Source of the DNA: Candidatus Omnitrophota bacterium
GTDB taxonomy: Bacteria; Omnitrophota; Gorgyraeia; Zapsychrales; Fredricksoniimonadaceae
NCBI GenBank assembly: GCA_903901225.1
Contig: CAIUQE010000019.1
Span: 1,146 to 65,145, forward strand
Direction: 5' to 3'
DNA: 64,000 bases
Under the pieces are notes generated by a model. It saw only the letters and a list, made by a program, of their open reading frames with translations, was not told where the DNA came from and did not search any database. Of this stretch, positions 16,572-63,434 are shown piece after piece (the stretch's first letter is position 1; each line of letters starts with the position of its first letter). Position numbers and translations under genes: made by a program.

Positions 16572-19500
16572 TTATTCCAGGAATTGCGCGGCGGATACGA
16601 GTGGGGTGAGGGAAGTTATGACCGGGGTCAGCCCTTTGATCTTGCCGGGGGCCATGCGGCTGTCAGCCGGGGCCATGGGGACGGCCTGTCCCGTGGTGTC
16701 CAGTTTCAGCAGGTCAGGATTCATGTCGATACCGCCGGGTGTTGCGGCTTTGTCCGCAGTCGCGGGCATGGCGTGATCGGGGGTCATGTCCACGACTTTT
16801 AATGACAGTTCCTTCTCAAAATAATCCGCGATATCATCAAAGGCTTTTTCGGCCTTTTCTTTGCCTGCAGGAGTGTTTGGGATTATTTTTCTGTCTATGG
16901 CGTGTTCTATAAAAGCGGCGTAGTTTTCCGGGGTCATGCGTAGCTCATACTGTGGCGCGAACACCTGACTGATGAACTGGATCATCGGAATATAGCCGGG
17001 GTGATTTTCTTTCAAATAATCGAACAACGATTTTCCGATCTCGGGCTTGAGGATCGCGCGCCTTTCCTGAAAGTCCTTGTTGGCCAGAAGTTGGAATATC
17101 CCGGAAGTTTGAAGGTCGGCGTTGGTAAATGTATCGGCAGCATTGACCGTGAATGTCTGGACGTCAAGCATGTCGTATGATTCTTTATCAACAGGGATAT
17201 GTTCTACGTTAGGAGCCGCATCAAAATAGGTTCTTTCAATGATCGTCTCGGGTCGATGTAACTGAATAGTTCCTGTTGTGCCGTGGGACATGCGGATCTT
17301 CTTTAATTCATGATCATTCATAAAGAAATTATAAGCGGCTGATCCGGGAGTCAGCATGATGCGGCCGTCTTTGGGAAGATATCTTGAAAGTTCCGCGATC
17401 GCGGCGGCAAAGGCGGGTTCCATGTCGTAGGCCGAACCGGTGTAGATGGGGTCAATATAAGCGCCTTCATCGCCAAGGGCCACATGCGCGGTGGCCAGTT
17501 GCCGTCCGTCCTGGTCATGGACAATGATGAAGCCGGCGGTGGCCTGCAGGGCGGTTTCCAACGGGGTTATTTTCTGGACCCCCTCTGATGAAAAACAACC
17601 CTGCCCCGCCCCTTGTCCGACTGAAGCTTCCTCCAGCAGGTCTTTTCTGAAGGTGATCTTTACGTTCTGTTTTCCATTTTGGCTGGTGATGGCTTTTTCC
17701 AGGGCGTCGATCTCGTTGATCTTGGATTGGAGCTCGCTCAGGGTGTTCTTGTGATCCTGGTTGTTATTGAGTTCAGGCGCGGTGTTGAATTTTATGAAGG
17801 CACCCCGGAATTCTTCAGCATCTTTGGTTGTCTGGATCAGTTTAACGGTATTACTAACGGAAACCGGCATGTCCCTGAATTTAAATTCGCGCCATTCAAG
17901 TTTCTTGACGGAGGCTTCCACCGACTCGACCATGGCGGTCGCTGAATGTCGGATCTGTTCCCTGATCTGGACATCGCTCATGCCCTTGGACAAGGACAAG
18001 TCCAGTTCGATCCCTTCTTCCCAGAGCCGGGGATCCCAGCCATTGCCTACCAGACGCGCAACAGCTTCTTTGTTCCCGAATACCAGATCTTTGAATTCAC
18101 GCTGCATTTCCAAATCAGGGTGTATTTTAAAAGAATCTTTTCCGATCGCCATTAGCTTAGTCCGTAAAGCCCTGCTGGCGGCAGATACACCGGCGTTTTT
18201 GTGGTAAGCATTGAGAAACTCTTTGATCGCATATCTGTATAACGACCAGAGGCGGCTTTCTTCGCCCGATTTTGTAAAAACAGACATGATGGTTCCGATC
18301 TGATTGATGAAAGAAGTGTTCTCAAAGAGAGGCGTAGCATTTTCAGGAACAGGCTCCTGGATCAAACTTTCCAGCAAGGTGGCGCGTAATACGGGCATCT
18401 GGCGCGATATTTGGGCCAATGCCTTGCGCGTGTCGGCGTTCCTTGATGTGGCGGATGTTTGAAGAATTTTATGCCACAGGCGGATCAAGGTCACGCTAGC
18501 GGCTTCAATGGCGCGGCCTGCTTTGAGGTCCGGTGGAAGTTGCGGGTCATGGGGCGAAGCTTTGAAAATTATTTTTGACCGGTCGTTATAACTACCATAG
18601 GCTTCTTTCATCAGCATCACTTCAGTGACAAAGGGAAGGGCGTCCATCTTGTAGCGCAGGTCAATGGATGGGTCATCCAAAAGGGCCAGGGTTTTCTCAC
18701 TAAGCAGTTCGGTTGTTCGATAGCCCCAACTGTGAAGACGATCGATGAATTGCTGCAATCTTTGCATATAGAGCGGCTTGCCGCTTAAAATCGTATCTCG
18801 AACGGCGGATTCAATGCGGCGTTGGTCATTGATATGCTGGTAATTTTTTCTTAAATCGGGTTTATTTCTCTGCGAGGCGGTTTGCAGTAATTCTTTTATC
18901 GGACGCACCTGTTGATCAATGTATATCGCGTAAGTTGCAAGCGTGTGCCCGGCGGCATGCTGGGCAAGGTTTAAAAATATTTTCTGAAAAAGGTTTCTAT
19001 TGTCGTCGTTAACGATCATATAGTTGTTAAGTGCTTTCCCCAGGGTAAGAATGTTCGATGCGATATTGGTGACATTTTTATAAAACTCATCTGCAGGATC
19101 ATCGGTCAGCATTGTTCCCAAGTTTGCAGGCAAAGGGGCTTTAAGGATGTTTTCAATAATAGATCGACGCAGCCCAGGCATTAAGGCGTCAACGGCCTCG
19201 GGTGTTCCCGCGTTAACGGGTTGTGCCAGAATACGGTCGGTAGCGACAAAGACAGCATCAAAAGCGGGGCGCTCGTCCTGAAGTGAACCTTGCATCAGGT
19301 TTGCCAGATACGCAATAGCTCCCACGCTGTGCATGATCTTGAAGCGCATATCAGCCGCTATCGTTTGGTCCATGATGACAGGCATGATGTTGGGGGTTTT
19401 TGGTAAAAGAATTTGACGAAATTTTTTATGTGTGAGTAGTTGTGTGAGATCTTTAATGGGTTGAACATCGCCATCAAGGCAAACTTCCGTGATAAGTTCC

Positions 19501-21665
19501 GGCAGGCCGTTTAACTTATTGATCTCAAGGCCTTTCGTCGCATCAAAAAGATGTTTAATATTATTGGTATCTTCATCCATGCGCGTGAGGAATTCTGGCA
19601 TCGTGTGTGTGGCAGAAAATCGCACCCACTTGTCAAGAATGAGGGGCGTAAACAGACGCGCATCCTCTGGAGAAAAAACACCTGCGTCAACCGCCGCGTC
19701 TGCCAGATCCCAAAGTTTATTTTTTATCCTGGTGAAAAAACGGGGTGGATTGGAGTTGTTCGCCATCAGGGATGTTTTAAGATTTAAGGCAATAGTCAGG
19801 AATCCGGTATAAAACTCCTCCGGCATGGCCGAGGAAATCCCTTGAATGATCCGGAAATAAGACTCCCCCAGCGGATCTAGCGCATCAAGGATGACTTCAA
19901 ATAATTTTTTCAAATTCGCGTCAACAGGGATGGTATGCTTCAGCTGATGCAATTGCCAGGCATCAACTTTGAAAAATAAAGAATTGTGGTCTTGCATCAT
20001 GGCAACAAAAACCTTTACGAATTTCAGCCACAGGCGATCAAAATCCTGGCCAAGGATATTTTTCAGGACAAACAATGATAACTTGGGGTATCGTGACTTA
20101 GGATCATCATAATCTGTGATGTTTTTCTCATTGTACTTAATAAAATCGATCAGAGACCCCTTGCCCGCAAGCCCCATCTTATAAAGGCCCGGCCATAATT
20201 TTTCAAATTCTTTTTGCCGCGATACCTGGTCTGTTCCAAGGTGGTCATACATGTTATTTATGATCTTGAGGGCTTCATAACTTCCATAGGTGTCACCCCC
20301 TTCTTGCCCGCTGACAGTTTTTAACAACAGCACCAATTCTTCTTCATGTACTTGAAGCCACGGTTTATCTAGTTTTAAAAGCAATGGAAAGCCGTGGGTA
20401 GTCAGCACGTAAGTGGTTAGTAAATTAGTGTTAGCGATTTTCTCTGAAAGTGACAAGAAATACGCCGCATCTTTTTGCCCGCTGAATATAGCCGTAACTT
20501 GATCCTTGACATCATTCCATCGGTAATGTTCTTCCGCCATATCGCATGCCGCAAGGAGCATGGGGCGGCCCGTGAGCGCGGCTTTTACTGGAGCGGGGTC
20601 ATTATCTTCCACGAGGGTGAGTCCTGCGGCATCCACGCCACCCGTAAAATATTTTCTTGGCAGGACTTCGCCGGTCGCGGGATCGGGTTCTTCCCGGATC
20701 ATATTGATGACACCCTTGCGGTACGCCGCGATGTATTGCTGGTAGATCTGTTCATTACCATCCTTACCGGGCTGTTCCACGCCTGAGGTCGCGCTTTGGT
20801 CGACGTAGGCTTTCCCCAGAAGGCTCTGCCTGAGATGATCCTTGAACCATTTGGCCAGGATCATGGCGTGGAAGACCTGGCGCAGGAGAGCGAAGTTCTT
20901 GCCGGTGTTGATCTCCGCTTCGATCTTCGGCAGGAGCACCTCGCGCATGGCCGTGGTCGTGAGGTCGCTGGCAGGAGCTGAGGACTCTGCGATGCCCCTC
21001 TGATGAGACATGGCTATGTAATCTTCTTCCAACATTACTTTCAGATGACTTTCCAGGATCACCACCGTGGTGCCGTTGGCGTAAACCCGGGCGCGGTCGG
21101 GCGTGATCCAGATCTTGTGGAAGGTGTCGAGCGGGACATCGGTGGTGCCAAAGCGTTCAGCCAACGTTTTATAAAGGAGGTCCCAGTAAGTCCGGCCCAG
21201 CGCGGTATCCGGGTTCATCAGGGAACTTGTCAGCTGTTTGAGAAGGTAATCCTGCGCCAATAGATCGCGTGCCATGGTTGTCGGGCCGAAAGCCTTGGGT
21301 GTGATCCGGTCAGGCTCAAGGGGTGAGAGGTTGACCCAAAGGTCGCTCTGGGGAACGGTCAAAGCGGTCAGAAAGTATTTGACGAGGTCCTGGGTGGTGT
21401 CTTTTAGAACAGGTTGATCACCGGGTCCTTGCCCGGGATCGACCAGGAAATCGAAATGAAACGGATGGCGCGGGTCGATCTTAAGGCCCTTGAGACAGGC
21501 GGGTTGGAACGCCGGTGACATGGTAACGGGCGCGCCCGGTGGTGGCAGGGGCACGGCCATCTGGGCCAAGGCCGGGCCGGGAAGCACACTGGTTCCCAGA
21601 AAGGCGGCCAATAGGACGCCGCGCAGAACATGAAAGATCCTGTGGGTGCGCAAATAATACATCAT
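16572..21665 (-). CDS. Sandwich-family secreted protein, copy 1 (1697 aa; helical cargo with possible GNAT-like domain)
   Basis: Signal peptide (ALA-Q); LKGLKI..PFHFDF, KYFLTAL.VP..DLWVNLSP.E.DRI, RDLLAQDY.LKQ, PRKYFTGG; C-terminal GGIDMNP...GLTPVI...QFLE; central part AT-richer. Confidence 0.9.
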   Translation of the reverse strand: MMYYLRTHRIFHVLRGVLLAAFLGTSVLPGPALAQMAVPLPPPGAPVTMSPAFQPACLKGLKIDPRHPFHFDFLVDPGQGPGDQPVLKDTTQDLVKYFLTALTVPQSDLWVNLSPLEPDRITPKAFGPTTMARDLLAQDYLLKQLTSSLMNPDTALGRTYWDLLYKTLAERFGTTDVPLDTFHKIWITPDRARVYANGTTVVILESHLKVMLEEDYIAMSHQRGIAESSAPASDLTTTAMREVLLPKIEAEINTGKNFALLRQVFHAMILAKWFKDHLRQSLLGKAYVDQSATSGVEQPGKDGNEQIYQQYIAAYRKGVINMIREEPDPATGEVLPRKYFTGGVDAAGLTLVEDNDPAPVKAALTGRPMLLAACDMAEEHYRWNDVKDQVTAIFSGQKDAAYFLSLSEKIANTNLLTTYVLTTHGFPLLLKLDKPWLQVHEEELVLLLKTVSGQEGGDTYGSYEALKIINNMYDHLGTDQVSRQKEFEKLWPGLYKMGLAGKGSLIDFIKYNEKNITDYDDPKSRYPKLSLFVLKNILGQDFDRLWLKFVKVFVAMMQDHNSLFFKVDAWQLHQLKHTIPVDANLKKLFEVILDALDPLGESYFRIIQGISSAMPEEFYTGFLTIALNLKTSLMANNSNPPRFFTRIKNKLWDLADAAVDAGVFSPEDARLFTPLILDKWVRFSATHTMPEFLTRMDEDTNNIKHLFDATKGLEINKLNGLPELITEVCLDGDVQPIKDLTQLLTHKKFRQILLPKTPNIMPVIMDQTIAADMRFKIMHSVGAIAYLANLMQGSLQDERPAFDAVFVATDRILAQPVNAGTPEAVDALMPGLRRSIIENILKAPLPANLGTMLTDDPADEFYKNVTNIASNILTLGKALNNYMIVNDDNRNLFQKIFLNLAQHAAGHTLATYAIYIDQQVRPIKELLQTASQRNKPDLRKNYQHINDQRRIESAVRDTILSGKPLYMQRLQQFIDRLHSWGYRTTELLSEKTLALLDDPSIDLRYKMDALPFVTEVMLMKEAYGSYNDRSKIIFKASPHDPQLPPDLKAGRAIEAASVTLIRLWHKILQTSATSRNADTRKALAQISRQMPVLRATLLESLIQEPVPENATPLFENTSFINQIGTIMSVFTKSGEESRLWSLYRYAIKEFLNAYHKNAGVSAASRALRTKLMAIGKDSFKIHPDLEMQREFKDLVFGNKEAVARLVGNGWDPRLWEEGIELDLSLSKGMSDVQIREQIRHSATAMVESVEASVKKLEWREFKFRDMPVSVSNTVKLIQTTKDAEEFRGAFIKFNTAPELNNNQDHKNTLSELQSKINEIDALEKAITSQNGKQNVKITFRKDLLEEASVGQGAGQGCFSSEGVQKITPLETALQATAGFIIVHDQDGRQLATAHVALGDEGAYIDPIYTGSAYDMEPAFAAAIAELSRYLPKDGRIMLTPGSAAYNFFMNDHELKKIRMSHGTTGTIQLHRPETIIERTYFDAAPNVEHIPVDKESYDMLDVQTFTVNAADTFTNADLQTSGIFQLLANKDFQERRAILKPEIGKSLFDYLKENHPGYIPMIQFISQVFAPQYELRMTPENYAAFIEHAIDRKIIPNTPAGKEKAEKAFDDIADYFEKELSLKVVDMTPDHAMPATADKAATPGGIDMNPDLLKLDTTGQAVPMAPADSRMAPGKIKGLTPVITSLTPLVSAAQFLE

Positions 21666-25286: not shown

Positions 25287-25631
25287 ATGTTATTCTTCAC
25301 ACCCCATGAACGCAGGGCGCTGATCTTTCTGGGAGCGGCTTTTTTTTGCGGCATCTGTCTGGACATTGCCTTCAAACTTTATCCGCCGGGTTATCAAGCG
25401 CTGCAGGTTCTTGACAAGGCGCCGGAGCACGCCCAGATCGACATCAATCGTGCTTCCTATGAGGACCTGATCGCGGTCGCAGGGATCGGGCCGTCGACAG
25501 CGGCGAGGATCATTTACGCCAGGGAAAAGGCGGGACGGTTCGCGTCACTTGAAGAAATCAGGGGCATCAAGGGGTTCTCCAAGAAAAGTTTTGCCAGGGC
25601 TGCGGCGCGGCTGACTGTAGGGCCGCCATGA
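25287..25631 (+). CDS. comEA: ComEA-like helix-hairpin-helix DNA-binding protein
   Basis: N-terminal TM; IDINRAS.EDL..V.GIGP..A.RII..R...GRF.SLEE...IKG. Confidence 0.88.
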   Translation: MLFFTPHERRALIFLGAAFFCGICLDIAFKLYPPGYQALQVLDKAPEHAQIDINRASYEDLIAVAGIGPSTAARIIYAREKAGRFASLEEIRGIKGFSKKSFARAAARLTVGPP

Positions 25632-27163
25632 CCCGTCGTCCCGCGGTGATATTGGCACTGGCGTTTGTCGCCGGGATATGCGGCGAGAATATTTTTGGCC
25701 CGCTGCCTTTTCTGTTCATTGCGGTGGGACTCTTCGCTGGCGTTGTCATTGTCGTTCGTTGTGGAAGGTTAGGATCGGGGGCGCTGCTGGTCGCGCTGGC
25801 GTTCCTGTGCGGCGCATTTGCCGCGTGGGACCGCAGTGTTATCCCCGCGGACCATATTCGAGCGCAGTTGGACCGGCTGAAAGGCCGCGCCGTGGATGTG
25901 GTGTGCCTGGTCGCGGCGCCACCTGAAAAAAAGACCAATGGTCTGGCGCCCAAAAGTGTGTTCATCGGCGATCTTGAGCAGGTCAGTGGTTGCCGCTTGA
26001 GTGGTAGAGTGATCGTGAACCTTTACGGCGCGGGGGATTTCCGTTACGGCGATCGTGTTCACGTGAACGGAAAATTCTCCAGGCCCTTCAATTTCTCTCC
26101 CGGTGGAAAACTATCTTATCGTGACTATCTTGCGCGGCAGGGTATTTACGCCGTGCTGCATGTGCGCACGCAAGCGCCGCGGAGGTGCCTTGAGGCGCGG
26201 CGATCATGGAGCTGGGAAGCCATGACCTTGGCCGCGCGCCTGCGCTTGCAGGAAGTTTTTCGGCAAAGCCTTTCTCCCGGCGAGGCAGGGCTTATGAACG
26301 CGATGCTTCTGGGGCCGCGCAACGACATCCCGCCGCATGTGTATGACATTTTTCGTAAGACCGGTACGGCGCATATCATCGCCATCAGCGGGATGAACAT
26401 GACGCTGACCTCGGCCGGCGTTATTTTTATTTTGGGATTGTTCCGTATCCCGCGCCTGCCGCGCGCGTTGCTGGCCGTGGTGATCCTCGCGTTCTATTCC
26501 TGCATGGCGGGCAACAGCGCGCCGGTGGCACGCTCAGCGCTCATGGCCGCGGTGTTCATCCTGAGTTTTGTTATCGAACGCGAGACCGACGCGGCCAACA
26601 GCCTGGCGCTGGCCGCTTTGCTCCTGCTGGCGGCAGATCCCGGGCAGTTGAATGACATCGGGTTCCAGTTGTCGTTCGCTTGTGTTGCCGCGTTACTTTT
26701 ATTGGCGCCATTGATCCTGGCACCGTTCGAAGGCGCGCCTTGTCAGGAGAACAAGGTTGCCTGGGGCCTGATCGAAGGCGCGGGCGTCACCCTGGCCGCG
26801 TTCATCGGGTCCGCGGGTATCCTGGCGTATGATTTCGGATACATGACACCGGTCGGGCTCATTGTGAATCTTCCGGTTATTCCGCTGATGGCGCTGGTCA
26901 CGGCGCTGGGGGCCGCGGTGGCGTTCACCGGGCTTGCGCTGCCATTTTTGGTAACACCTTTCGCGCTGGGCCTGAAGGTTGTATTGAACATTTCTGTCTG
27001 GATACTGGCCCAGGCCGCGCGCATGCCCGTCGTGCCCTGCGCCGGGGTATCCGGGTGGGTGGCTGGCGCGTATTACGGCATCTTATTGTCTGTGACCGCG
27101 TATTTTCATATGACAGCGAGAAAAAACAGGTTCAGCCAGCCCAGGCCGCCCCTGATCCATTAA
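25628..27163 (+). CDS. comEC: ComEC/Rec2 competence channel (no C-terminal metallo-beta-lactamase domain)
   Basis: DUF4131-like region, F..TGTAHIIAISG, RSALMA, GFQLSF. Confidence 0.9.
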   Translation: MTRRPAVILALAFVAGICGENIFGPLPFLFIAVGLFAGVVIVVRCGRLGSGALLVALAFLCGAFAAWDRSVIPADHIRAQLDRLKGRAVDVVCLVAAPPEKKTNGLAPKSVFIGDLEQVSGCRLSGRVIVNLYGAGDFRYGDRVHVNGKFSRPFNFSPGGKLSYRDYLARQGIYAVLHVRTQAPRRCLEARRSWSWEAMTLAARLRLQEVFRQSLSPGEAGLMNAMLLGPRNDIPPHVYDIFRKTGTAHIIAISGMNMTLTSAGVIFILGLFRIPRLPRALLAVVILAFYSCMAGNSAPVARSALMAAVFILSFVIERETDAANSLALAALLLLAADPGQLNDIGFQLSFACVAALLLLAPLILAPFEGAPCQENKVAWGLIEGAGVTLAAFIGSAGILAYDFGYMTPVGLIVNLPVIPLMALVTALGAAVAFTGLALPFLVTPFALGLKVVLNISVWILAQAARMPVVPCAGVSGWVAGAYYGILLSVTAYFHMTARKNRFSQPRPPLIH

Positions 27164-27255: not shown

Positions 27256-30200
27256 ATGAAATTGGACGTGAAGCGAATTCTACATGGAATTCTTGCGGGC
27301 ATTTTGATCCTGGCATTCATTGTGCCGGATCTGCGGGTCTATGCGCAGGGAGTTATTTCTTTGCCGGAACCGGGCGTTGGATTCGCGCTGAGCCCGGCAT
27401 TTTCACCCGTGCTCCTTAAGGGCATCAAGGTCCGCTTGAACGACCCTTTCCGTTTTGATTTCATCCTGGACAAAGGCGATGGCACGGCCACGGCGGCGCA
27501 GATCAAGGCCGACGCCACCCGCCTGATCAAATACTTTCTCGCCTCCCTGACGATCCCGGAAAGCGACCTCTGGGTCAACCTTTCACCCTATGAAAAAGAC
27601 CGTATCATCCCCGACGCTTTTGGCCAGACGGGGATGGGGCGCGACCTGCTTGTCCTGGATTATCTCCTCAAAAAAACAATGGCCATGCTCCTGCACCCGG
27701 ATGGTGCGGTGGGAAAGAAATTCTGGGAGAAACTCTACGCCCGGGCCTACGAGGTCTACGGGACCACCGACATTCCCATTGACACCTTCAATAAGGTCTG
27801 GATCACCACGGACAGCGCCGAGATCTACGCGCGGTCGAAAGATGAAGGCACGCCGGTCCAGGCCGCCGTGGCTTTCGTGACCGCAACCCATCTGAAGGTC
27901 ATGCTGGAGAGTGATTACGTAGCCCTGTCCCATCAGAGGGACAGGGCGGATTCCTCTGCTCCTGCCGAGGACGTAGCCCTGTCCCGTACAACCCAAGGTG
28001 CTGACGCCATGAGCGTAGGGGAGGACTTTATGTCCTCCCGCCATGATCTCGAAAAGAATGTTCTTCGCGAGATCATCATCCCCGTCCTCGAAAAGGAAGT
28101 GAACGAGGGCCGGGATTTCAGCCAGCTGCGGCAGATCTATACCAGCCTTGTGCTGGCGACATGGTACAAGAAGGAGTTGACGAACGCCCTTGTGACCAGG
28201 GTCTACGCGGACCAGGGCAAGGTGGCCGGGATCACGCACCATGATCCCGGGATGCAGCAAAGAATATGGGACAGCTATGCCGAAACCTTCCGCAAAGGGG
28301 TGTATAACCTGATCCGGGAAGAGGTCGATCCGGCTTCTGGGGAAACCATTCCCCGGAAATATTTCTCCGGCGGGGTGGTCCTGCATGGCGATTATGCAAC
28401 GACACAAGAAAGGCCTTCGGCGGAAGGTCCTGGAGATTACGCGGCAATGACAGTGGACCTGGCGCAGGACACTACAGGGGAAGCAACGACACTCAATGAT
28501 ATCCTTGGCCCTTCCGCTGAACAGGCGGTCATGGCAAAATATTTCAGCCGGGGGAAACTTCCCAGTCATGTCAGGAAATTCTTGTCCGGCAGGAATGAGC
28601 TGGTCCGGGACAATAATACGAAAGAATTTGTCCGACGGTTGATGGATATCATGGAGACCGTTGGGCCCGATGTCGGGAACATGATCATAGACTTCATGCG
28701 GGGAGAGCTCGGCGGGAAATTTCTTCTCAAGGATTTGGTTGACCCGGGAGTTCTGTCGGTGTTGTTTCGCGGGGATAAGGATACGCAGGCGTTGCTGGAG
28801 ATGGCTGTGGAGGAGAATGACCCGCGTTACATTGGTTCAGCGCTGGCGGATTTTTTTAAGAAAGAGTTTGATCAGGAAGATGACTTTCAGACTGTCACCA
28901 GGGCGGCGCTCCTGTTGCGTTGCCTTTATGGTTTTCCCCAGGAACGGGTCCCGTTGGTATACCTTACGGCCCTTGAAACTTCCGGGATCCTTGAGCTGTT
29001 CCGGTATGTTCACCGTAATCCGGCATTAAAAGGACAGTATTCATTTCTTACTCCGGGGAATCCGATTGTTACGGCGATCCTGGAGAATAACGGGCCGGAG
29101 CTTGTGCGTTTGATCAATGAGATCCCCTGCCCGCCGGCAAAAAAAGCGGGGCTGTTGTTGCCGATAAAAAAGATGCTCGCGCACTACGGTTATCCTCTCG
29201 TTGCCATTGACGTCGGGAGCGCCGCGGATAACACGCTGCCGGCGTCTGACCCCCTTCCCATAAACATTTCCCTTCACGGTCAATTGTCCGCGATGGAGGA
29301 CATATTATCGGATACGGGCGCCGACCAGGCGTTGGTTTTGAAAGCAGTATTAAAGATCCTGGAAGATGTTAAGGAAACCCTGTCCCATGATCCGCATATT
29401 TATAAGGAATTGGTTGCCAGCTTCCAGGATGAATTGGTCAAAGCCCGAAGCAGTTACCTCCAGCAGCTAGCCATACAACACAAGGATAATGAGGATGCCC
29501 TTTTCGTTGCCGTGACGCAGGCAGAAACAGCCATGTTGCTGGGCTTTGATGAGACCGACATCGTTATTTTGAAAGCGTTCCATTTCTTGAAAAGGAATAA
29601 AACGAATCCGACCATGGAAAGGATCATCAAACACCTCAAAGAGGCGTCATCTGAGATCGATACAGCGACCCTGGAAAAGATATCTATCTTGAAGGATTTT
29701 TTCACCGGGATGATCGCTCTTGATCTTCAGGAAGAACATGTCATTTATGCCAAAGAGGCCAGGACGCTCAGGGATTTTGATATCGACCAGTTTTACCGGA
29801 ACAACATCGAGCATGGCTTTCAGGACCTGGTGATCGCCATGATGGAAGAAACAGGTGCTGACAAAGAGAGTGTGCAGAATTATTTGACAAGTAAAAAGAT
29901 ATTTCCCAACGGGCAGATGGCATTGCTTAATGTTAATGAGTATCCTGTTTTGAGAATAAATAGCAGCTTTGTCAATGAGAGGCTTTTGAAAATAATGACT
30001 CGGGATGTCAAGGATGCAATCAGGAAGATCCTGGATGGCGTGGCTGATGGCAATCAACATATCCCTTTTATTTATCGAACCACACTGGGTAACCAAAAGA
30101 ATTTTTCCATTTATGTCAGGATCAATGGAGTGATCGGGAACAATGAGTTAAGACATGCGGGGCTGGCTGACATTGAAATTAAAGACTTGTTGAATGCTTT

Positions 30201-30585
30201 GGCTAATAAAGAAAACAGCCTGATCTCGGCATTGAATACACAGGCCAGGTACACATTTCGGTCAGGAGATATAACAAAATTCTCCACCGTTATAAAAAAG
30301 ATCATACCTCTGCCGCAGGTTCAAGAAAATGTAATAAATCTCATTAAAACATCCCTGCATAACAGGGAGGTTGTTATCGTTGCCTTTGGAGCAAGGGCCA
30401 AGTTCAAAATGCGATCAGACACCAACTCAATGTTGCACGACTTTGAGCAGCATTTGAATAATGTTTCCACAGGTACTATTGAGCCTCTTCCTGTTTATGC
30501 CGATCAGGCCATGTCTCTTGAGAAAGATCTCGGCGGTATTGACCTTGATCCCGCCGCTGCTCAAAGGCATCAAGGTTTATCGTAA
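27256..30585 (+). CDS. Sandwich-family secreted protein, copy 2 (unknown cargo; C-terminal tail truncated after GGIDLDPA)
   Basis: ATG 27256 after GGAG; signal peptide (VYA-Q); LLKGIKV..DPFRFDFILDKGD, RLIKYFLASLT.PE.DLWVNLSPYEKDRI, PRKYFSGG; DQAM...GGIDL at 30502-30546. Confidence 0.88.
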   Translation: MKLDVKRILHGILAGILILAFIVPDLRVYAQGVISLPEPGVGFALSPAFSPVLLKGIKVRLNDPFRFDFILDKGDGTATAAQIKADATRLIKYFLASLTIPESDLWVNLSPYEKDRIIPDAFGQTGMGRDLLVLDYLLKKTMAMLLHPDGAVGKKFWEKLYARAYEVYGTTDIPIDTFNKVWITTDSAEIYARSKDEGTPVQAAVAFVTATHLKVMLESDYVALSHQRDRADSSAPAEDVALSRTTQGADAMSVGEDFMSSRHDLEKNVLREIIIPVLEKEVNEGRDFSQLRQIYTSLVLATWYKKELTNALVTRVYADQGKVAGITHHDPGMQQRIWDSYAETFRKGVYNLIREEVDPASGETIPRKYFSGGVVLHGDYATTQERPSAEGPGDYAAMTVDLAQDTTGEATTLNDILGPSAEQAVMAKYFSRGKLPSHVRKFLSGRNELVRDNNTKEFVRRLMDIMETVGPDVGNMIIDFMRGELGGKFLLKDLVDPGVLSVLFRGDKDTQALLEMAVEENDPRYIGSALADFFKKEFDQEDDFQTVTRAALLLRCLYGFPQERVPLVYLTALETSGILELFRYVHRNPALKGQYSFLTPGNPIVTAILENNGPELVRLINEIPCPPAKKAGLLLPIKKMLAHYGYPLVAIDVGSAADNTLPASDPLPINISLHGQLSAMEDILSDTGADQALVLKAVLKILEDVKETLSHDPHIYKELVASFQDELVKARSSYLQQLAIQHKDNEDALFVAVTQAETAMLLGFDETDIVILKAFHFLKRNKTNPTMERIIKHLKEASSEIDTATLEKISILKDFFTGMIALDLQEEHVIYAKEARTLRDFDIDQFYRNNIEHGFQDLVIAMMEETGADKESVQNYLTSKKIFPNGQMALLNVNEYPVLRINSSFVNERLLKIMTRDVKDAIRKILDGVADGNQHIPFIYRTTLGNQKNFSIYVRINGVIGNNELRHAGLADIEIKDLLNALANKENSLISALNTQARYTFRSGDITKFSTVIKKIIPLPQVQENVINLIKTSLHNREVVIVAFGARAKFKMRSDTNSMLHDFEQHLNNVSTGTIEPLPVYADQAMSLEKDLGGIDLDPAAAQRHQGLS
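27917..28039. repeat. Intragenic palindrome cluster in copy 2, including a GTAG-type REP
   Basis: GCCCTGTCCC-atcaga-GGGACAGGGC (27922-27947); direct repeat ACGTAGCCCTGTCCC (27917-27931 and 27971-27985); GTAG-GGGAGGAC-tttat-GTCCTCCC (28015-28039). Confidence 0.85.
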
Positions 30586-33500
30586 TGACCCGTTCCGGTT
30601 TGATTTCATCCTCGACAAAGGTGATGGCAAGGCCGTGGAGGCGCAGACAAAAACGGATGCCACCCGGTTGATCAAATATTTCCTTGCGTCGCTGACGGTT
30701 CCCGAGAAAGACCTGTGGGTCAACCTCTCGCCCTATGAAAAAGACCGCATCGTGCCCGAAGCCTTCGGGAAGACCGAGATGGGCCGTGATCTTCTCGCGC
30801 AGGATTACATCCTCAAGCAAATAACAGCATCGCTCATTTACCCCGATGAAAAGACCGGCAAGGAATTCTGGGCCAAAGTTTACGCCGAAGCACAGCGTCG
30901 TTACGGCACAACGGACATCCCGGTCGACACCTTCAACAAGGTCTGGATCATCCCCGAAAAAGCCACCGTCTACGAACACAAAGACGCCGTATATGTGGTT
31001 GAGAGCCGATTGAAAGTCATGTTGGAAACGGATTATATTGCGATGACGCGGGCGGACACAAGGTCCGCCCCTACAACGCAAGGTGTTGACTTCGTGAGCG
31101 TAGGGGAGGACCTTGTGTCCTCCCGCCATGAGCTCGCCAAGAATGTTCTGCGCGAGATCATCATCCCCGCCCTTGAAAAAGAAGTCAACGAAGGCCAAAA
31201 CTTCGCCACGCTGCGCCAGGTCTACAATTCCCTGATTCTAGCCACCTGGTACAAGCGCAAGGTCAAGGCCGGCATCCTTGGCCAGGCGTATGTCGACAAA
31301 AAGAAGACGGGCGGCATCGACATCAAGGACAAGAACGAAAAGGAAAAGATCTGGGCCCAGTACGTCGAGGCGTTCAGGAGGGGGGCGTATAACCTTATCA
31401 GGGAAGAATACGACTCGACGACCAGATCCACTACTCCGAGAAAATATTTCGCGGGAGGATTGGCCTTGAGTGTGGACGCCGCGATGGATATTACGTCAGA
31501 TGCGGCAAGCGTGGCAAGTATGCCTGGTGATAGATTTGAAATCATCATTTCGTCTCTTTTATCGGTCGACAGGGCGATGTCTGAGAGGGATAGTCACGTG
31601 CCGCCTACTGTTGAAATGGTAAACCGGATAAATAATCTTGTTGAAGCGCTTGGCAGTCCAGACGGGCTGGTGCGTGCGCATGCGGCTAAAGAGCTTCTTA
31701 AGATGGATGAAAAGGGAGTGAGGCAGTCGTTATTTGAAAATGGTTACTGGTCTGAAAAAGAGTCAATGTCAGGCAAGTTCAGAGCGTTGATCTTGAAAAA
31801 AGTACCGGCATGGAAGTTGGTGCTGGAGGCGTTCAACACACTGAATGTTTTTGATGGTTATGAAAAGATAGACATGCGTAATAATCCTGCAAGATATCTG
31901 GCCCTGGGCATGGAGGTCATGTTTTGGCCAAAAAGGTATTCATTTTATTCTTGGTGGAATTTTTCAACATATCTTTTAGCGATGAAGGATTATGACCAGT
32001 TTATCGATTATGTGGCTTTTAGTCCGGCCAAAGTGTTCAGCACGGAGTCGATCTTATCAGAAGTCAGAAGCACCCAAAGTTATTCGCAAAAGAAGTTCTT
32101 CCTGGATGTTTTGATCCGCCGGAAAGAGCCGAAAGCAGTTGAACTGTCTTGGGCATGGATCGGAAGAAAGGGGACTGTTAATGATTTTCACAGCGCTTTG
32201 CAGGATTCAATTGAAGGATATTTGAAGGACGCGGACCCAAAATTTGTTTCAGCAGCATTTTTCTCCCGTGAGGCCAGGAAAGGTCCTGGCAAGCTGGCGA
32301 TAGATTATTTGAATATTTTCCCGACGGCTTCGGCGCTTAAAGATGATGTGAGCATCATGTCGACATCCAGCTGCCCTTTCAACTGCAGGATGTGCGTTGC
32401 CAAGAAAATCCGCAGGGAGCGCAACCCTGATGTCCCTAAAGCAGAATTGTTCAGGCGGATCGATCAGGTCAGGGGCGCCTCGAGGATCCGGTTCGTTGGA
32501 CCCGGTGAAACGACAGCTTATGGAAAACAGGATTTATCGGAACCTGGATTTTCCAGGGACTTTATTGATGTGCTCAAGTATGCGTCCGAAGCTGCTGATG
32601 AGATCTATGTTGTGACCAACGGCCTTTTAATCCCCGCCGACATGGATCAAGCCAGAAGTCTGCTGGGAAATCTTCCCAATAACATTGTTTGGATCCTTTC
32701 AGTTGATGAGCAACACGCGGCAGAAATGGCAAGAGTTCAGGACGGCAAGAAACTTACAGATCTGGTGATGGTGTTCGAAGGATTGCATAATGAGGATCAT
32801 ATTAAGGCAGGATATTTTGTGGCGGCCACCTTTTCCGACCAATCGAAAGTTACAAGACAGTTTGGATTGAGGGATGCCGAGAAAGAGCACCGGGTTACAG
32901 CTTTTCCGATCATAGAACAAGGTGTCGCCGCAGAAGCGATGAAGGGTGAAGTTTCGTACAGGGACCCTGGCCATTACAATGATCACTCAAAGGAGGAGGG
33001 CAGGACAGACCTGTACATTGATATGGATGGCTTCGTTGTGGGTTCAAACCATGTCGCTTTCATGACTTCCGGGGAAAGAAAGACTATTCGCACGTTCAAT
33101 ATTTTTGGGAATGTTCAGGAGCAGCCCTTATCCGATTTTATGCTTATAAAATACAAGACAAGGGCGATATGGAACGACTATGGCAGTGAAAAAGAATTTT
33201 TTGAATGCTGTAAATATCTTCTCAAGGCGATCGCGTTGTATTTAGATGGTAATGAAAAAGAACTGCAAGGACAATTGACCATCATAAGGGCCATGCCAAT
33301 GAATTTGAGAAAGAAGGTTGTCGAAAAGTTACATGGGAATTTTGAATGGATAGATCTGAGGGAACGTGTATTACTTGGTATTTGGTTTAGCCGCTATTTA
33401 CCGGATTGGTGGGAGCTTATCCTAAAGAAAGACAAGGTCCATTACTTTGGCAACTTGACGCAGCTTTTTTCTTCCAAAGGTACTCAGACGGGAGATAATG

Positions 33501-33697
33501 CCGAGGTTGCACAAAACGGCGGTATCGACCTCAACCCCTCTAAAATTGACATGGCCACGAAGAACAGCGGCGCGCCGATCGATCTCAACCTCGACCCCGC
33601 GATGCTCTGGCGTATGCAGGATGCTTCCGGCGTCACACCTGTCATTGTCGGCATCCATGCTCTTGGAAGCCTGCGGCAGTTCCTCGAAATTCCGTAG
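30461..33697 (+). CDS. Sandwich-family protein, copy 3 (HEAT-like plus radical SAM cargo); family signal peptide missing
   Basis: Family homology begins at PPLLKGIKV (30551); PRKYFAGG; CPFNCRMC (32372-32395); C-terminal GGIDLNP...DPAM...GVTPVI...QFLE. Upstream in-frame ATGs lie inside copy 2. Confidence 0.8.
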   Translation: MFPQVLLSLFLFMPIRPCLLRKISAVLTLIPPLLKGIKVYRNDPFRFDFILDKGDGKAVEAQTKTDATRLIKYFLASLTVPEKDLWVNLSPYEKDRIVPEAFGKTEMGRDLLAQDYILKQITASLIYPDEKTGKEFWAKVYAEAQRRYGTTDIPVDTFNKVWIIPEKATVYEHKDAVYVVESRLKVMLETDYIAMTRADTRSAPTTQGVDFVSVGEDLVSSRHELAKNVLREIIIPALEKEVNEGQNFATLRQVYNSLILATWYKRKVKAGILGQAYVDKKKTGGIDIKDKNEKEKIWAQYVEAFRRGAYNLIREEYDSTTRSTTPRKYFAGGLALSVDAAMDITSDAASVASMPGDRFEIIISSLLSVDRAMSERDSHVPPTVEMVNRINNLVEALGSPDGLVRAHAAKELLKMDEKGVRQSLFENGYWSEKESMSGKFRALILKKVPAWKLVLEAFNTLNVFDGYEKIDMRNNPARYLALGMEVMFWPKRYSFYSWWNFSTYLLAMKDYDQFIDYVAFSPAKVFSTESILSEVRSTQSYSQKKFFLDVLIRRKEPKAVELSWAWIGRKGTVNDFHSALQDSIEGYLKDADPKFVSAAFFSREARKGPGKLAIDYLNIFPTASALKDDVSIMSTSSCPFNCRMCVAKKIRRERNPDVPKAELFRRIDQVRGASRIRFVGPGETTAYGKQDLSEPGFSRDFIDVLKYASEAADEIYVVTNGLLIPADMDQARSLLGNLPNNIVWILSVDEQHAAEMARVQDGKKLTDLVMVFEGLHNEDHIKAGYFVAATFSDQSKVTRQFGLRDAEKEHRVTAFPIIEQGVAAEAMKGEVSYRDPGHYNDHSKEEGRTDLYIDMDGFVVGSNHVAFMTSGERKTIRTFNIFGNVQEQPLSDFMLIKYKTRAIWNDYGSEKEFFECCKYLLKAIALYLDGNEKELQGQLTIIRAMPMNLRKKVVEKLHGNFEWIDLRERVLLGIWFSRYLPDWWELILKKDKVHYFGNLTQLFSSKGTQTGDNAEVAQNGGIDLNPSKIDMATKNSGAPIDLNLDPAMLWRMQDASGVTPVIVGIHALGSLRQFLEIP
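31050..31124. repeat. Inverted pair of GTAG-type REP hairpins (REP doublet) inside copy 3
   Basis: GGGCGGAC-acaag-GTCCGCCC-CTAC (31050-31074), 25-nt spacer, GTAG-GGGAGGAC-cttgt-GTCCTCCC (31100-31124). Confidence 0.88.
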
Positions 33698-33768: not shown

Positions 33769-33786
33769 GGGCGCACTGTGTTTTAT

Positions 33787-34749
33787 ATGAAAATCAGGCC
33801 TACTCTTATAGCTCTTGTTGTCGTCGCCTCCGCCATGGCCATGGCCGCGCCGGCCCATGCCTTCTGGATCTGGACGCCGGAAAGTGGCAAGTGGGTCAAT
33901 CCCAAATACTCCGTTAAGCCTTCGCCGCAGGAACAGCTGGCCTACGCCGATACTTTTTTTCAGGCGGGCAAGTACCCGGAGGCGATGCGCGAATACAAGA
34001 AACTTTTGAAGCATTATCCCAAGGCCCGCGAGGCCGCTGAGGCGCAGTTCAATATGGGCCGCGCCTGGGAGGACCTGAAGAAATTCTGGCGCGCCGTTGA
34101 AGAATACCAGAAGGTCGTGGATCGTTATCCTTTCAGCGACCTTGGCCCCAAGGTCGTGGAGCGGCAGTACGCCATCGCGGACCTTTTTCTCGAGGGTAAG
34201 GCCAAGGACCATGAGTTCGCCCAGTCATTGCTGGGGACGGATTATCAGGTCCCCGAGGTTTTCCTGAAAGTCATCAAGAACGACCCTTATGGTCCGCTCG
34301 CGCCTGTGTCCCAATACAAGATCGGTCTTTTTTACCTGGCCAAGCGTGATTACCAGCAGGCCCGTGACGCTTTTGAGAAGACGGTCAACGATTATCCGGA
34401 TTCCAAGTGGGCGGAAGCGGCGCGTTACCAGATCGCGGTCGCGGACGCCAAGCGCTCAGTCGGGGCCCAGTATGACCAAAAAACAACGAATATCGCCGTC
34501 CAGGGGTTTGAGGATTACGTGAAGCTGAACCCTGAATCCGACCTTTCCGCCTCCGCCAAGGAACAGATCAACAAATTACGGGAGAAGGAAGCGGAAAATA
34601 ATTTTGTGGTCGGTGAGTATTACGCGAAAATGAAGAGGTACAATTCCGCCAGGATATACTGGCAGACCGTCGTCGACAAGTATGCTGACACGCCCTGGGC
34701 CGCCAAAGCCTCCGCGCAGCTCAAGGCCATTGCGGGTAAAGCTTCATGA
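33787..34749 (+). CDS. bamD: Outer membrane assembly factor BamD-like TPR protein
   Basis: Signal peptide; repeated TPR/YP.S motifs; YDQ..T..A...F..Y...PES, E.NF.VG.YY; directly upstream of lptE. Confidence 0.8.
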   Translation: MKIRPTLIALVVVASAMAMAAPAHAFWIWTPESGKWVNPKYSVKPSPQEQLAYADTFFQAGKYPEAMREYKKLLKHYPKAREAAEAQFNMGRAWEDLKKFWRAVEEYQKVVDRYPFSDLGPKVVERQYAIADLFLEGKAKDHEFAQSLLGTDYQVPEVFLKVIKNDPYGPLAPVSQYKIGLFYLAKRDYQQARDAFEKTVNDYPDSKWAEAARYQIAVADAKRSVGAQYDQKTTNIAVQGFEDYVKLNPESDLSASAKEQINKLREKEAENNFVVGEYYAKMKRYNSARIYWQTVVDKYADTPWAAKASAQLKAIAGKAS

Positions 34750-37816: not shown

Positions 37817-37832
37817 AAAGGGATGGTCCTTC

Positions 37833-60393: not shown

Positions 60394-60411
60394 GGCAGGA
60401 GGAATCGCCTC

Positions 60412-60726: not shown

Positions 60727-60959
60727 GAATGCCGGGGACATATTGAGTTATTCCGGATCCTGGCCTTCTGTCAAGCCTTCTCATCAGGAATTATAAGTAT
60801 TTCGTATTAAAGCACACTATAAAGCCTCTATTCTTCAGCTACTTACAAGAAATAGTAGTAGCGTTTTCTCGCCGGACCGTTCGATCGCATACCCCATATA
60901 TATTTATAGACTATACTTACTTTAACGGCGTGGTGGCCGTCTGACCAAGGGGCGAGGGG

Positions 60960-63434
60960 ATGGTGAAGAAATTCGTTAAAAGATCGATCGCGTTATTGAC
61001 GCTTGTGACCTTCATGGCCATGAGCGTGCCGTCGTCTTATGCCCAGAGTGTTGTTCTGCCCAAACCCGGGACCATGGTGGCCCTGAGTGAAAGCTTCACG
61101 CCGCCGCTCTTAAAAGGCATTAAAGTTTATCCGGACAATCCATTCCGTCTTGATTTCATCCTTGATAAGGGCAATTCCAGCGATCCCGCTGATAAGTTAA
61201 AGGACGAGTCTTCCCGCCTGATCAAGTATTTCCTCGCGTCGGTCACGGTCCCTGAAAAAGATCTCTGGGTCAATCTCAGCCCTTATGAAAAAGACCGCAT
61301 TGTGCCGGAGGCGTTTGGCCAGACCGAGATGGGGCGTGACCTTTTGGCGCAGGATTATCTTTTGAAGCAGATCACAGCGTCGGTGATTTATCCCGAAGGC
61401 GAAGTCGGCAAGAAATTCTGGGCCAAGGTTTACGCCGAGGCGCAGAGCCGTTATGGCACAACCGATATCCCGGTCGACACCTTCAACAAGGTCTGGATCG
61501 TCCCGGAGAAGGCGGTCGTCTACGAGAACAAGGATGCCGCCTTTGTAGTTGAAAGCAAACTCAAGGTAATGCTGGAGTCAGATTATGTAGCCGCCACGCA
61601 AAATGAGGAGATGGTGCGTAGGGGCGGGTCTGTGACCCGCCCACATGAGCAAGATTCGCAAGAATTCGCCAAACCGATCCTGCGCGAAGTCGTCATTCCC
61701 ATTCTTGAGAAAGAGGTCAACGAAAGCCGGAATTTCGCCCAACTGCGGCAGGTCTATAATTCCCTCATTCTCGCCGTTTGGTTCAAGGACAAGGTCAAAG
61801 AAAGTATTTTCGGCAAGGCCTATGTCGACCGCGACAAGATCGCGGGGGTTGCTATCAACGATAAGGCGGAGAAGGAGAAGATCTGGGCGCGGTATGTGGA
61901 GTCGTTCAAGAAGGGTGTATATAACTATATCAAGGAAGAGAATGACCCCGGTACGCAAGATGTCATCCCGCGTAAATATTTCTCCGGCGGATTTAATATG
62001 AGGCTCGATCATGCGATGGTTGTGACCCATGACGCCGGGATGATCGCAGGGTTAAGGTCAGCTTTTAAGGTGATGGTTTTGTCGGTGGCGTTAACCATTG
62101 CAGGTGGTCAGACGCCTTTGGTCAATATGCCAGTAAAAATCCCGCCGGTTATCGCAGGTTCAGTAACAGATCGTTTGTTTAAATGGGTCGGTCATCAGTC
62201 ATGGATCACTTTTCAAATTTTTTCTATTGAAGGATGGAACGAGTACCTTATGTCAATTCGGCGACCTTTGAATACTGTAGGGGAAGCATCTTTTAATACT
62301 GGTACTGGATTGCAAATAATTCGTCTACCAATGCAGCCTAGAGAGGGAGGAGTTATAATACGTCCTCTTATTCATGAAATATCACATGCGATCATTAATC
62401 GAGAACATTTTCTAGGAAATCGAACATTTTTACTGCAAAAAGTCGAGGCTTTGGAAAAGGCGGTATTGGATAACGGGACACAGGAAGACATAAAGGCTTT
62501 TTACAAGATGTTTATGTTCTATAAATATCAATATAATTCACTATCACAATGGATCGTGGGTTATAAAAATGGTGAGATCGATGTTGATGAGTTATTGTCT
62601 CAGGTTAAGATCGTTAATCGTCAGGGAAGTGGATGGCGCGATGATTCTTATTTGAAGTCAGCGAAGATCGGGTTTGAAATGTTTTTGGAGCGAGGTAAGA
62701 TCCAATTGGGTGAGAAAGTCGTTTCGACAAGTACCTCGAATATTCCCTCTGGGCATCTCAGCGAGGATCGGGATTGGTGGGAAAAGATGAAGTCTGATCA
62801 GAAGTTGCAAGATTATATTGAGTCTTATTCTTGTCCGAACAGTGAGGCTTCCAATGAATTATTCGTTTATTTTGTTACGGCGTATACCAAGTGGCAGTAT
62901 TTCTATTATTTTGGTTCGACCCCTCAACCTCTTTCTGGCGCTCAAGAGGTGCATAAAAGTTTATCTGGTTTATCGCATAGTGGGAAGCTTGAGAAGACTG
63001 ATGATTCTAAGAAGCCAGAGCAGCATGAGAAGCCAGTAATGGCTGAAAAGTCTGGAGAAGCAGGACCTGCAATATTTGCTGTGGTGGAGCAATTCATAAT
63101 AGAAGCAGGGCTTCCGCCGGATATTGTTAGTTATGATAATTCAATGTCTTTCGCGTTGGCTCCTGAAAATATGTCTATACCTGATGAAAAGCCGTTACTG
63201 GGTGAGGGCAAACCTGTCAAGGCTGATAACGGTGGTATCGACCTAACCCGCGACAGGATGGGCCTTCAGGTTCACAGCGGCGGGCAAGGCGTTCAATTCA
63301 ACTTTGATCCTGCCATGATCCAGCAGTTACAGAATGCTCCCGGCCTGGCACCGGTGATCATCGACATCCAGCCGATGACTACCACTGTGCCGATGTTCCT
63401 GGGGCTTAAGGATGATGCGCCGGCGCAAGGCTGA
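60960..63434 (+). CDS. Sandwich-family secreted protein, copy 4 (HExxH zincin-like cargo)
   Basis: Signal peptide (SYA-Q); full conserved N-terminal domain to PRKYFSGG; LIHEISH (62373-62387); C-terminal GGIDL...DPAM...GLAPVIIDIQP...FLG. Confidence 0.9.
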   Translation: MVKKFVKRSIALLTLVTFMAMSVPSSYAQSVVLPKPGTMVALSESFTPPLLKGIKVYPDNPFRLDFILDKGNSSDPADKLKDESSRLIKYFLASVTVPEKDLWVNLSPYEKDRIVPEAFGQTEMGRDLLAQDYLLKQITASVIYPEGEVGKKFWAKVYAEAQSRYGTTDIPVDTFNKVWIVPEKAVVYENKDAAFVVESKLKVMLESDYVAATQNEEMVRRGGSVTRPHEQDSQEFAKPILREVVIPILEKEVNESRNFAQLRQVYNSLILAVWFKDKVKESIFGKAYVDRDKIAGVAINDKAEKEKIWARYVESFKKGVYNYIKEENDPGTQDVIPRKYFSGGFNMRLDHAMVVTHDAGMIAGLRSAFKVMVLSVALTIAGGQTPLVNMPVKIPPVIAGSVTDRLFKWVGHQSWITFQIFSIEGWNEYLMSIRRPLNTVGEASFNTGTGLQIIRLPMQPREGGVIIRPLIHEISHAIINREHFLGNRTFLLQKVEALEKAVLDNGTQEDIKAFYKMFMFYKYQYNSLSQWIVGYKNGEIDVDELLSQVKIVNRQGSGWRDDSYLKSAKIGFEMFLERGKIQLGEKVVSTSTSNIPSGHLSEDRDWWEKMKSDQKLQDYIESYSCPNSEASNELFVYFVTAYTKWQYFYYFGSTPQPLSGAQEVHKSLSGLSHSGKLEKTDDSKKPEQHEKPVMAEKSGEAGPAIFAVVEQFIIEAGLPPDIVSYDNSMSFALAPENMSIPDEKPLLGEGKPVKADNGGIDLTRDRMGLQVHSGGQGVQFNFDPAMIQQLQNAPGLAPVIIDIQPMTTTVPMFLGLKDDAPAQG
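61618..61642 (+). repeat. GTAG-type REP hairpin inside copy 4
   Basis: GTAG-GGGCGGGTC-tgt-GACCCGCCC (perfect 9-bp stem). Confidence 0.85.

Follow-up and report, generated by a model that had tools for sequence, protein, structure and literature searches.

Four family members in the window

The stretch analyzed here, referred to as the window, comprises 64,000 nucleotides of contig CAIUQE010000019.1 from a Candidatus Omnitrophota bacterium (assembly GCA_903901225.1), and it carries four dispersed members of a family of predicted secreted proteins in which a constant N-terminal domain (the head) and a short C-terminal module (the tail) enclose a middle region (the cargo) that differs from copy to copy. 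A first-pass annotation of the sequence had proposed these four open reading frames (ORFs), and all are present, with lengths of 1697 amino acids (aa; copy 1), 1109 aa (copy 2, from the ATG at 27256), 1078 aa (copy 3), and 824 aa (copy 4). Its description of the shared parts holds: the heads of the other copies are 47 to 68% identical to that of copy 4, copies 1, 2, and 4, but not copy 3, have a signal-like N terminus that ends in A-Q, with LP.PG following, GGID[LM] is found in all four, and G[LV].PVI is found in copies 1, 3, and 4. The middles are indeed unrelated (best pairwise E 1.2 to 7.7 among the four cargos), and the reported spot counts of 34, 24, and 18 G or C per 60 nucleotides in copy 4 are exact. 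Copies 2 and 3, however, are not two intact genes but are joined by an out-of-frame fusion at about 30547 to 30559.

16572..21665, minus strand: copy 1, 1697 aa, intact; sits between leuS (divergent) and thiS-thiG
21564..21665, minus strand: copy 1 signal-peptide-like leader, ending between A and Q (hydropathy and motif only)
20637..21563, minus strand: copy 1 head domain, with the invariant GG as its last residues
16737..20636, minus strand: copy 1 cargo, ~1300 aa
16767-16778, minus strand: copy 1 D-H-A-M motif
16572..16736, minus strand: copy 1 GGID tail
27256..30585, plus strand: copy 2, 1109 aa; signal 27256-27345, head 27346-28374, dark cargo
30502-30513, plus strand: copy 2 D-Q-A-M motif
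30532-30546, plus strand: copy 2 tail, ending right after GGIDL
30461..33697, plus strand: copy 3 ORF, 1078 aa; true homology from ~30548, head to 31459, tail 33518-33697
31475 and 31568, plus strand: copy 3 D-x-A-M motifs
32372-32395, plus strand: copy 3 radical SAM cargo, CxxxCxxC
60960..63434, plus strand: copy 4, 824 aa, intact; signal 60960-61043, head 61044-61991, tail 63231-63434
61992..63230, plus strand: copy 4 cargo; zincin-like HExxH 62373-62387, D-x-[AS]-M at 62007 and 63135

The cargos of copies 1 and 2 are dark. That of copy 1 has no match in Pfam, NCBIfam, or Protein Data Bank (PDB) sequences, and its residues ~940 to 1720 have a homolog at 24% identity in another family member; PDB sequence searches with the cargos of copies 1, 2, and 4 gave no match. 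Copy 3 codes for a radical SAM domain with the CxxxCxxC motif intact. The copy 4 HExxH, which we take to be a zinc peptidase signature, is retained in three matches from two relatives' genomes, and suggests that this cargo may be a zinc peptidase.

A large family in the source genome

The four copies belong to a much larger set. Searches of the source genome (Omnitrophota, 2.38 Mb, 95% complete) with head and tail give a head match in 48 reading frames, a tail in 43, and both in 38, such that the two constant parts co-occur well beyond the window. The family frames together cover 168,651 bases, or 7% of the genome, and correspond to ~45 to 50 loci after allowing for split and contig-end pieces. 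Thirty-four members are intact from leader to tail (709 to 3961 aa), with a signal peptide, a head of ~320 aa, cargo, and a GGID tail of ~60 aa. Leaders were called from hydropathy and motif. Each of the 43 frames whose head start is complete has a hydrophobic leader (the motif filter accepted 36, and the remaining seven are evidently leaders of this type too); A/G-Q lies just ahead of the head in 39 of these. Both GG pairs, one at each cargo border, are invariant in 88/88 Omnitrophota members.

Heads are up to 92% identical within the genome, whereas 36 cargos compared pairwise have no BLAST match at E < 1e-4, and the central regions are thus not homologous to one another at this level. Cargo and head also differ in composition, with GC at 0.468 versus 0.532 and third-position GC (GC3) at 0.507 versus 0.660 (36 members); cargo GC is below head GC in 33 of the 36, which extends to the whole genome the AT-richer middles described in the window. 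A membrane-helix-like stretch is present in just 8 of 36 cargos, and HExxH is 3.5-fold enriched in cargo. Cysteine is scarce, at 0.24% in the 36 own cargos and 0.13% in 424 collected cargos, compared with 1.1% in 859 other long ORFs.

These data bear on whether the family could be a selfish gene-capture or dispersal element with unselected cargo, as its low cargo GC, the gain and loss of copies at housekeeping slots (see below), and the many broken copies might suggest. However, the 34 intact frames retain their signal peptides, there are no terminal repeats around the window copies, and only three family loci are in viral contigs, with no match in 50,697 phage records that would indicate a phage origin. 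The purging of cysteine from the cargo also implies that the protein itself is under selection; we consider a selfish element very improbable.

The genes following 44 tail-bearing frames are housekeeping genes, further family members, toxin-antitoxin genes, or nothing, and no small downstream gene recurs among them. In the window, where the first-pass annotation had noted no immunity-like ORF after the copies, the next genes are thiS-thiG, copy 3, a gene for a BamD/YfiO-like TPR lipoprotein, and a BrnT toxin gene. A kin-directed system of classical polymorphic toxins, each paired with its immunity gene, would share the constant carrier and variable domain, and toxin-family domains are carried by actinobacterial homologs (see below). 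But the cargo is internal rather than C-terminal, no conserved small gene follows, and no Tox-family cargo was found among the pieces of the genome that were scanned; such a system is already largely refuted for the Omnitrophota and scarcely tenable overall.

Cargo content and border motifs

Among 43 cargo pieces outside the window, 14 have a Pfam match (E up to 0.001), and several of the Pfam matches to family cargos are below the cut-off. The enzymes include glycosyltransferase 2, a UDP-glucose pyrophosphorylase-like protein, a Cys/Met pyridoxal phosphate (PLP) enzyme, methyltransferases, HAD, and a GHKL ATPase, and there are also TPR, phosphomutase, 2H phosphoesterase, HD plus deaminase, and RelA-like (below cut-off) matches. 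Further domain types, namely PEP-synthase-type, kinase, EPSP synthase, lipase, WD40, and ADP-ribosyltransferase-like, are seen in members from other genomes. The recognizable cargos require cytoplasmic cofactors, namely ATP, S-adenosylmethionine (SAM), PLP, and sugar phosphates. One cargo (L100:2193-6035, G000:C34) has three AvrB/XopAH-like stretches and two HExxH motifs, and is the sole known-toxin-like cargo among the 47 cargo pieces or proteins of the genome that were scanned. We note that an AvrB/XopAH-like cargo is unexpected in a bacterium where no type III export gene was found.

It is conceivable that these proteins form a variable coat or adhesin set, acting against phages or in host recognition, in which the cargo is a structural or decoy load and any enzyme activity is incidental. 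Most cargo is unrecognizable, the cargos are only 25 to 41% identical to the genome's own homologs and so diverged from normal enzymes, and WD40, TPR, and HEAT cargos occur alongside the below-cut-off matches. We think this unlikely, however, as the catalytic motifs that were checked are intact (CxxxCxxC in two cargos, and HExxH in copy 4 as well as its homologs) and whole multidomain enzymes are carried intact.

The cargo is modular. A 665-aa module is 89% identical in two members with otherwise different cargo, and several cargos are subparts of longer ones. The motif D-x-[AS]-[MQ] is present within 60 aa after the head in 60/88 members and within 30 aa before the tail in 35/88, against a background of 0.5 to 0.6 per 1000 aa in cargo interiors and other proteins, and it is near several, although not all, of the shared-module borders. 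In other Omnitrophota families (L308-L327), A/S-S-S-P and P-D-G-G linkers replace D-x-A-M.

The copy 2/copy 3 junction and its genomic slot

Copies 2 and 3 lie in a slot between comEC and a bamD-like gene. The features of this slot are listed here together with the toxin gene that follows copy 4.

25628..27163, plus strand: comEC, left flank of the slot
30547..30559, plus strand: out-of-frame deletion junction from the copy 2 tail start to the copy 3 head, at a short microhomology
31048..31126, no strand assigned: in-frame palindromic repeat in the variable loop of the copy 3 head, with 27-nucleotide arms that are 93% complementary
33778..34749, plus strand: BamD/YfiO-like TPR lipoprotein gene, right flank of the slot
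63482..63742, plus strand: BrnT-type toxin gene after copy 4, of the toxin-antitoxin type and not an immunity gene

The copy 2 tail breaks off just past GGIDL and runs out of frame into the first strand of the copy 3 head, and copy 3 lacks a signal peptide because a deletion fused the copy 2 tail into its head. In three of four sequencing runs the junction is spanned by one unbroken contig (27450-30946, no differences). An assembly artifact is thus unlikely, although these runs may be the source of the window itself and are not independent replication.

The slot upstream of the bamD-like gene is empty, with comEC abutting bamD, in three of five same-genus genomes, and contains no family tail in the remaining two. 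Among 29 other loci, four, from other genera, have a family gene in the slot (727, 1553, 2651, and >3289 aa), none with cargo resembling that of copies 2 or 3. Taken with the 92%-identical heads bearing unrelated cargo and the 89%-identical shared module, the occupation of one slot by different cargo shows that recombination between the constant ends swaps cargo modules and also adds and removes them.

Several other observations can be made in the window. Besides the palindromic repeat in copy 3 there is a decayed hairpin at 27938-27985, and contigs of two runs have an alternative joint with 38 other letters at the repeat, such that this loop of the copy 3 head may be variable within the population. 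ThiS and ThiG are fused in a single reading frame (15539-16555), a PIN-domain gene is at 46838-47218, and two long frames among the housekeeping genes, at 44748-46841 (697 aa) and 37743-39500 (585 aa), have no Pfam match.

Identity of the head and distribution within the Omnitrophota

The first-pass annotation recognized no named family for the constant parts, and none has emerged. The head has no match in NCBIfam or PDB sequences and belongs to no Pfam family (88 heads, 25 of 30 families shown), with PSII_BNR (E 0.01) as the best recurring weak match; nor does the tail match any Pfam family. A suspected resemblance to DUF1598 was discarded, with zero matches to PF07643 in the genome at E 10 and none among the 25 of 30 families shown for the 88 heads. 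Residues common to the groups (copy 4 numbering) include W103, N105, D132, K136, W179, N254, R263, and G343-G344. An ESM Atlas structure search with the head returned unnamed Omnitrophota clusters and one Actinomycetota cluster named for an LPXTG anchor (TM 0.66); a second Atlas query returned nothing.

The relatives are almost all labeled Candidatus Omnitrophota. The head profile matches 8,300 representatives of 50%-identity clusters, 6,785 of them at E up to 1e-30, and the tail is present in 127 of the best 150 representatives, at the C terminus in 125. In a single-query search, matches were found in 116 of 401 sampled genomes of the phylum, all inside the class of the window; among them are 50 of the 54 other genomes sampled from its order. 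The layout is preserved in distant families, with some differences: two have a tail reduced to GG plus 8 to 15 residues at the very end, and another has different linker motifs and a long helical tail.

There are also heads without cargo, of ~420 aa and ending in a complete GG-I/V-D-L motif, which form one well-supported group (17 rows) in a head tree built by a quick method that gives no direction of transfer. Two actinobacterial rows with very long branches (P0223 and P0269) were disregarded in this tree, as they are probably mis-extracted by the motif-based cut. In both loci read, the cargo-less head gene is directly downstream of a giant multienzyme gene (L368:3757-13632 in G406:C20, and L367:5141-19001 in G061:C1); in the G406 neighbor, a signal-like leader is followed by domains of triose-phosphate isomerase, phosphoglycerate kinase, enolase, and, twice, fructose-bisphosphatase. 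It is possible that a cargo-less head acts in trans.

Actinobacterial homologs

The Actinomycetota cluster matched in the Atlas led to six Streptomyces plasmid records with 24 to 30% identity to the head (E down to 4e-30), and through these to an actinobacterial branch. One actinobacterial core used as a query finds 995 proteins, and those named among the best 120 are from Streptomyces, Actinacidiphila, Kitasatospora, Frankia, and Parafrankia. Alignment of the core with the Omnitrophota head profile (HHalign probability 100%, E 2e-41) indicates that the same head domain is present outside the Omnitrophota, in actinobacterial proteins predicted to be secreted.

The actinobacterial set (L112-L115 from Streptomyces plasmids, P0156-P0279, and P0339-P0344) has a different layout: a signal peptide, a variable N-terminal domain, GG[IVL]D[FL], the core, a second GG[IVL]D[FL], and a hydrophobic anchor. 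The first motif, after the cargo, is present in 124/124 homologs, the second in 123/124, and a C-terminal hydrophobic segment in 106/124. Sortase anchoring is not a general feature, with an LPxTG-type motif in just 3 of the 124.

The variable parts form 12 clusters. An XOO_2897 deaminase is over the Pfam cut-off in two of 28 scanned actinobacterial cargos (P0177 and P0255) and also in P0341, and Tox-REase-5 is over the cut-off in P0344; P0341 and P0344 have the actinobacterial layout and no taxon label. Other cargos have what we presume, by eye and from known motifs, to be deaminase, HNH-like, and restriction-fold signatures. No immunity gene is annotated beside four annotated plasmid examples, where short unannotated frames exist, and one example of the actinobacterial set lies behind a PrsW protease gene. 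Deaminases of the XOO_2897 clade have been described as toxin domains, some of them lacking an immunity gene and directed at hosts (PMC3239186). The actinobacterial proteins apparently constitute an undescribed family whose members are secreted, anchored at the C terminus, and variable at the N terminus, where they carry deaminase or nuclease domains.

The two layouts could be related in more than one way. The Omnitrophota tail scores better against the first actinobacterial motif region than the second (mean over 123 windows of 10.1 versus 4.4 bits; HHalign 69% versus 30%), which favors a circular permutation, and the cargo-less heads favor insertion of cargo at a terminal motif. Under permutation or insertion alike, what comes immediately after the cargo in both phyla is a GG-I/V-D strand.

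Export machinery and a proposed mechanism

The 2.4-Mb genome codes for seven secretins (G000:C33, C36, C5, C15, C37, C35, and C11), 13 PilB/GspE/PilT-type ATPases over the cut-off, and 12 GspF/PilC/TadB-type domain matches. PorV, the sole component of the type IX secretion system (T9SS) that was searched, has zero matches in this 95%-complete genome (the control was positive in Bacteroides), and VipB and FHIPEP were not found. A giant frame of 16,827 aa (G000:C11:44397-94877, minus strand) holds the only C39 peptidase match in the genome; it has no head match and no GGID motif.

Two family cargos resemble parts of this giant, and the cargo classes match those of multienzyme giants that are interpreted as surface proteins in the available text of a recent preprint (10.64898/2026.06.07.730766). 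Head and tail could then sort the proteins to the surface of the producer in a type IX-like manner, with the enzymes digesting the contents of lysed prey externally. The depletion of cysteine and the absence of membrane helices from most cargos fit an exposed location, as does the hydrophobic anchor of most actinobacterial homologs. Signaling, methyltransferase, RelA-like, deaminase, and AvrB-like cargos would nonetheless be of little use in a lysate, and fast wholesale replacement of cargo suits an arms race better than nutrition. We regard surface display as possible but rather doubtful.

The reading we prefer, with middling confidence, is that the family is a Sec-exported, lineage-expanded carrier by which variable cargo, be it enzyme or effector, is passed on contact to a host or prey cell and released at motifs. 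Delivery is preferred over surface display, a coat, a selfish element, or a kin-directed toxin mainly because the cargos need cytoplasmic cofactors. Omnitrophota are also reported, in the accessible part of one study, to be host dependent or predatory (PMC10066038). The first-pass annotation had proposed an effector delivery system, and this stands in part: the unnamed constant parts, exchangeable cargo, export signal, and lack of an immunity gene all agree with it, whereas no scanned cargo of the genome matched a classical Tox-/Ntox family and the recognizable ones are mostly ordinary enzymes. Independent support comes from the actinobacterial proteins, in which the same head carries Pfam polymorphic-toxin domains.

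In the proposed mechanism, the signal peptide, visible as a leader ending between A and Q, would send the whole chain across the inner membrane. The head may be a module that handles cargo, with the GG-[IV]-D-hydrophobic strand completing its fold or engaging it, as the sequence patterns suggest. In the Omnitrophota, where this strand is at the far C terminus, the cargo would form a loop clamped by head and tail; the actinobacterial proteins have their cargo ahead of the strand. One of the several type II secretion or type IV/Tad pilus machines of the genome might then move the protein over the outer membrane at a contact site. Cargo would be freed by cuts at the GG and/or D-x-A-M/Q junctions, made either by the head itself or by another protease, for which the C39 domain of the giant is a candidate. 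It would act where it meets ATP, SAM, PLP, and sugar phosphates, in or on the breached cytoplasm of a host or prey cell. Under this proposal the producer can do without an immunity gene, since cargo would never fold inside its own cytoplasm. Recombination between the constant ends, as seen at the shared module and the bamD slot, supplies new cargo.

Several findings weigh against delivery of this kind. Twenty-nine of the 43 cargo pieces outside the window have no Pfam match at all, no Tox- or Ntox-family cargo is present among the 47 scanned cargo pieces or proteins of the genome, many recognizable cargos look metabolic and not toxic, and a Pfam toxin cut-off is reached by only a minority of actinobacterial cargos, 2/28 in one scan. 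Cofactors for the radical SAM and PLP cargos would need to be gained after export. No translocon, needle, or pore-forming part was identified in this 95%-complete genome, in which PorV, VipB, and FHIPEP were not found, and the family genes lie among housekeeping genes and not beside secretion loci. No Cys, His, or Ser is conserved in every head, and the head is therefore not an obvious protease. Finally, D-x-A-M is missing from some members and other families have different linkers, suggesting that junction signals are lineage specific.

A broader interpretation, which we offer tentatively, is that head and GG-I/V-D strand constitute an unrecognized module for delivery and release of proteins in two distant phyla. 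In actinobacteria it would be a cell-anchored launcher of N-terminal deaminase and nuclease toxins; the Omnitrophota would have rearranged it into a clamp of head and tail, putting whole metabolic and signaling enzymes into the cytoplasm of a living host.

Relationship to known systems

The family resembles polymorphic toxins in combining a constant trafficking part with swappable cargo (PMC3482391, PMC3239186, and PMC12419801, as far as their available text goes), and XOO_2897 deaminase and Tox-REase-5 are also found on the actinobacterial homologs. Those sources, to the same extent, describe versions without immunity genes as being aimed at hosts or prey. Cargo exchange between constant parts is common to both, but the family has no C-terminal variable domain with a downstream immunity gene: its cargo is internal (Omnitrophota) or N-terminal (actinobacteria) rather than at the C-terminal tip, and RHS, FilH, LXG, MafB, and HINT parts are absent. 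Moreover, its cargo consists mostly of metabolic-type enzymes, at 45 to 50 loci per genome.

The giant Omnitrophota proteins, termed Archaeovorins or multienzyme proteins, are from the same phylum and, in the available text, also have a signal peptide (10.1101/2023.11.21.568195; 10.64898/2026.06.07.730766). As described there, they share methyltransferase, GHKL ATPase, HAD, phosphomutase, and radical SAM classes with the family cargo, and proteolytic processing is proposed for them; strings of cytoplasm-type enzyme domains behind a signal peptide are found in the family too. Family members, however, are 0.7 to 4 kaa rather than the >10 kaa given for the giants, mostly lack membrane helices, and occur in dozens of copies. 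The string GGID does not occur in the main text of 10.64898/2026.06.07.730766, the part of that preprint consulted. FHIPEP and VipB, of type III and type VI secretion respectively, are not found in the genome, and the Sec-like signals also set the family apart from effectors of those systems.

Type IX cargo proteins have a Sec signal, Q at position +1, and a conserved C-terminal domain. The family has a comparable Sec signal ending before Gln, a variable middle, and a short conserved C-terminal module (compare the accessible text of PMC11285876). In contrast to that system, the genome has no PorV match, the tail has no Pfam match to the C-terminal domain of T9SS cargo, an Ig-like beta-sandwich, some family tails are only about a dozen residues long, and the large constant N-terminal head has no counterpart. 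Double-glycine leaders are cut by C39 peptidases, and the invariant GG pairs at both cargo borders and the C39 domain within the giant recall them. But the GG pairs of the family are internal and followed by a conserved I/V-D-hydrophobic strand, and the proteins start with a Sec signal and not an ABC transporter leader.

The family thus works like an immunity-less polymorphic effector system with a type IX-like layout and giant-like cargo classes, and departs from each of these in a defining feature. In the literature searched, neither head nor tail nor the actinobacterial branch was found to be described, although subscription journals and preprint supplements could hold a description. As far as searched, the family is real, large, and undescribed, and is new as a carrier architecture; its mechanism is a proposal.

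Implications

It is an open question how the abundant, ultrasmall, host-dependent Omnitrophota affect their hosts, and hardly any of them can be grown alone. A family occupying 7% of a genome, with definable head, tail, and junction motifs, provides concrete peptides to seek in coculture proteomes. Were the tentative two-phylum reading true, epibiotic Omnitrophota with dozens of copies would be rewiring their hosts, using an effector arsenal of Legionella-like scale against microbial hosts, exported by Sec and a pilus-type machine. The actinobacterial homologs bring the problem into the culturable and genetically tractable Streptomyces, and would add to Streptomyces biology an undescribed class of proteins with N-terminal toxin domains, together with a possible new protein export signal.

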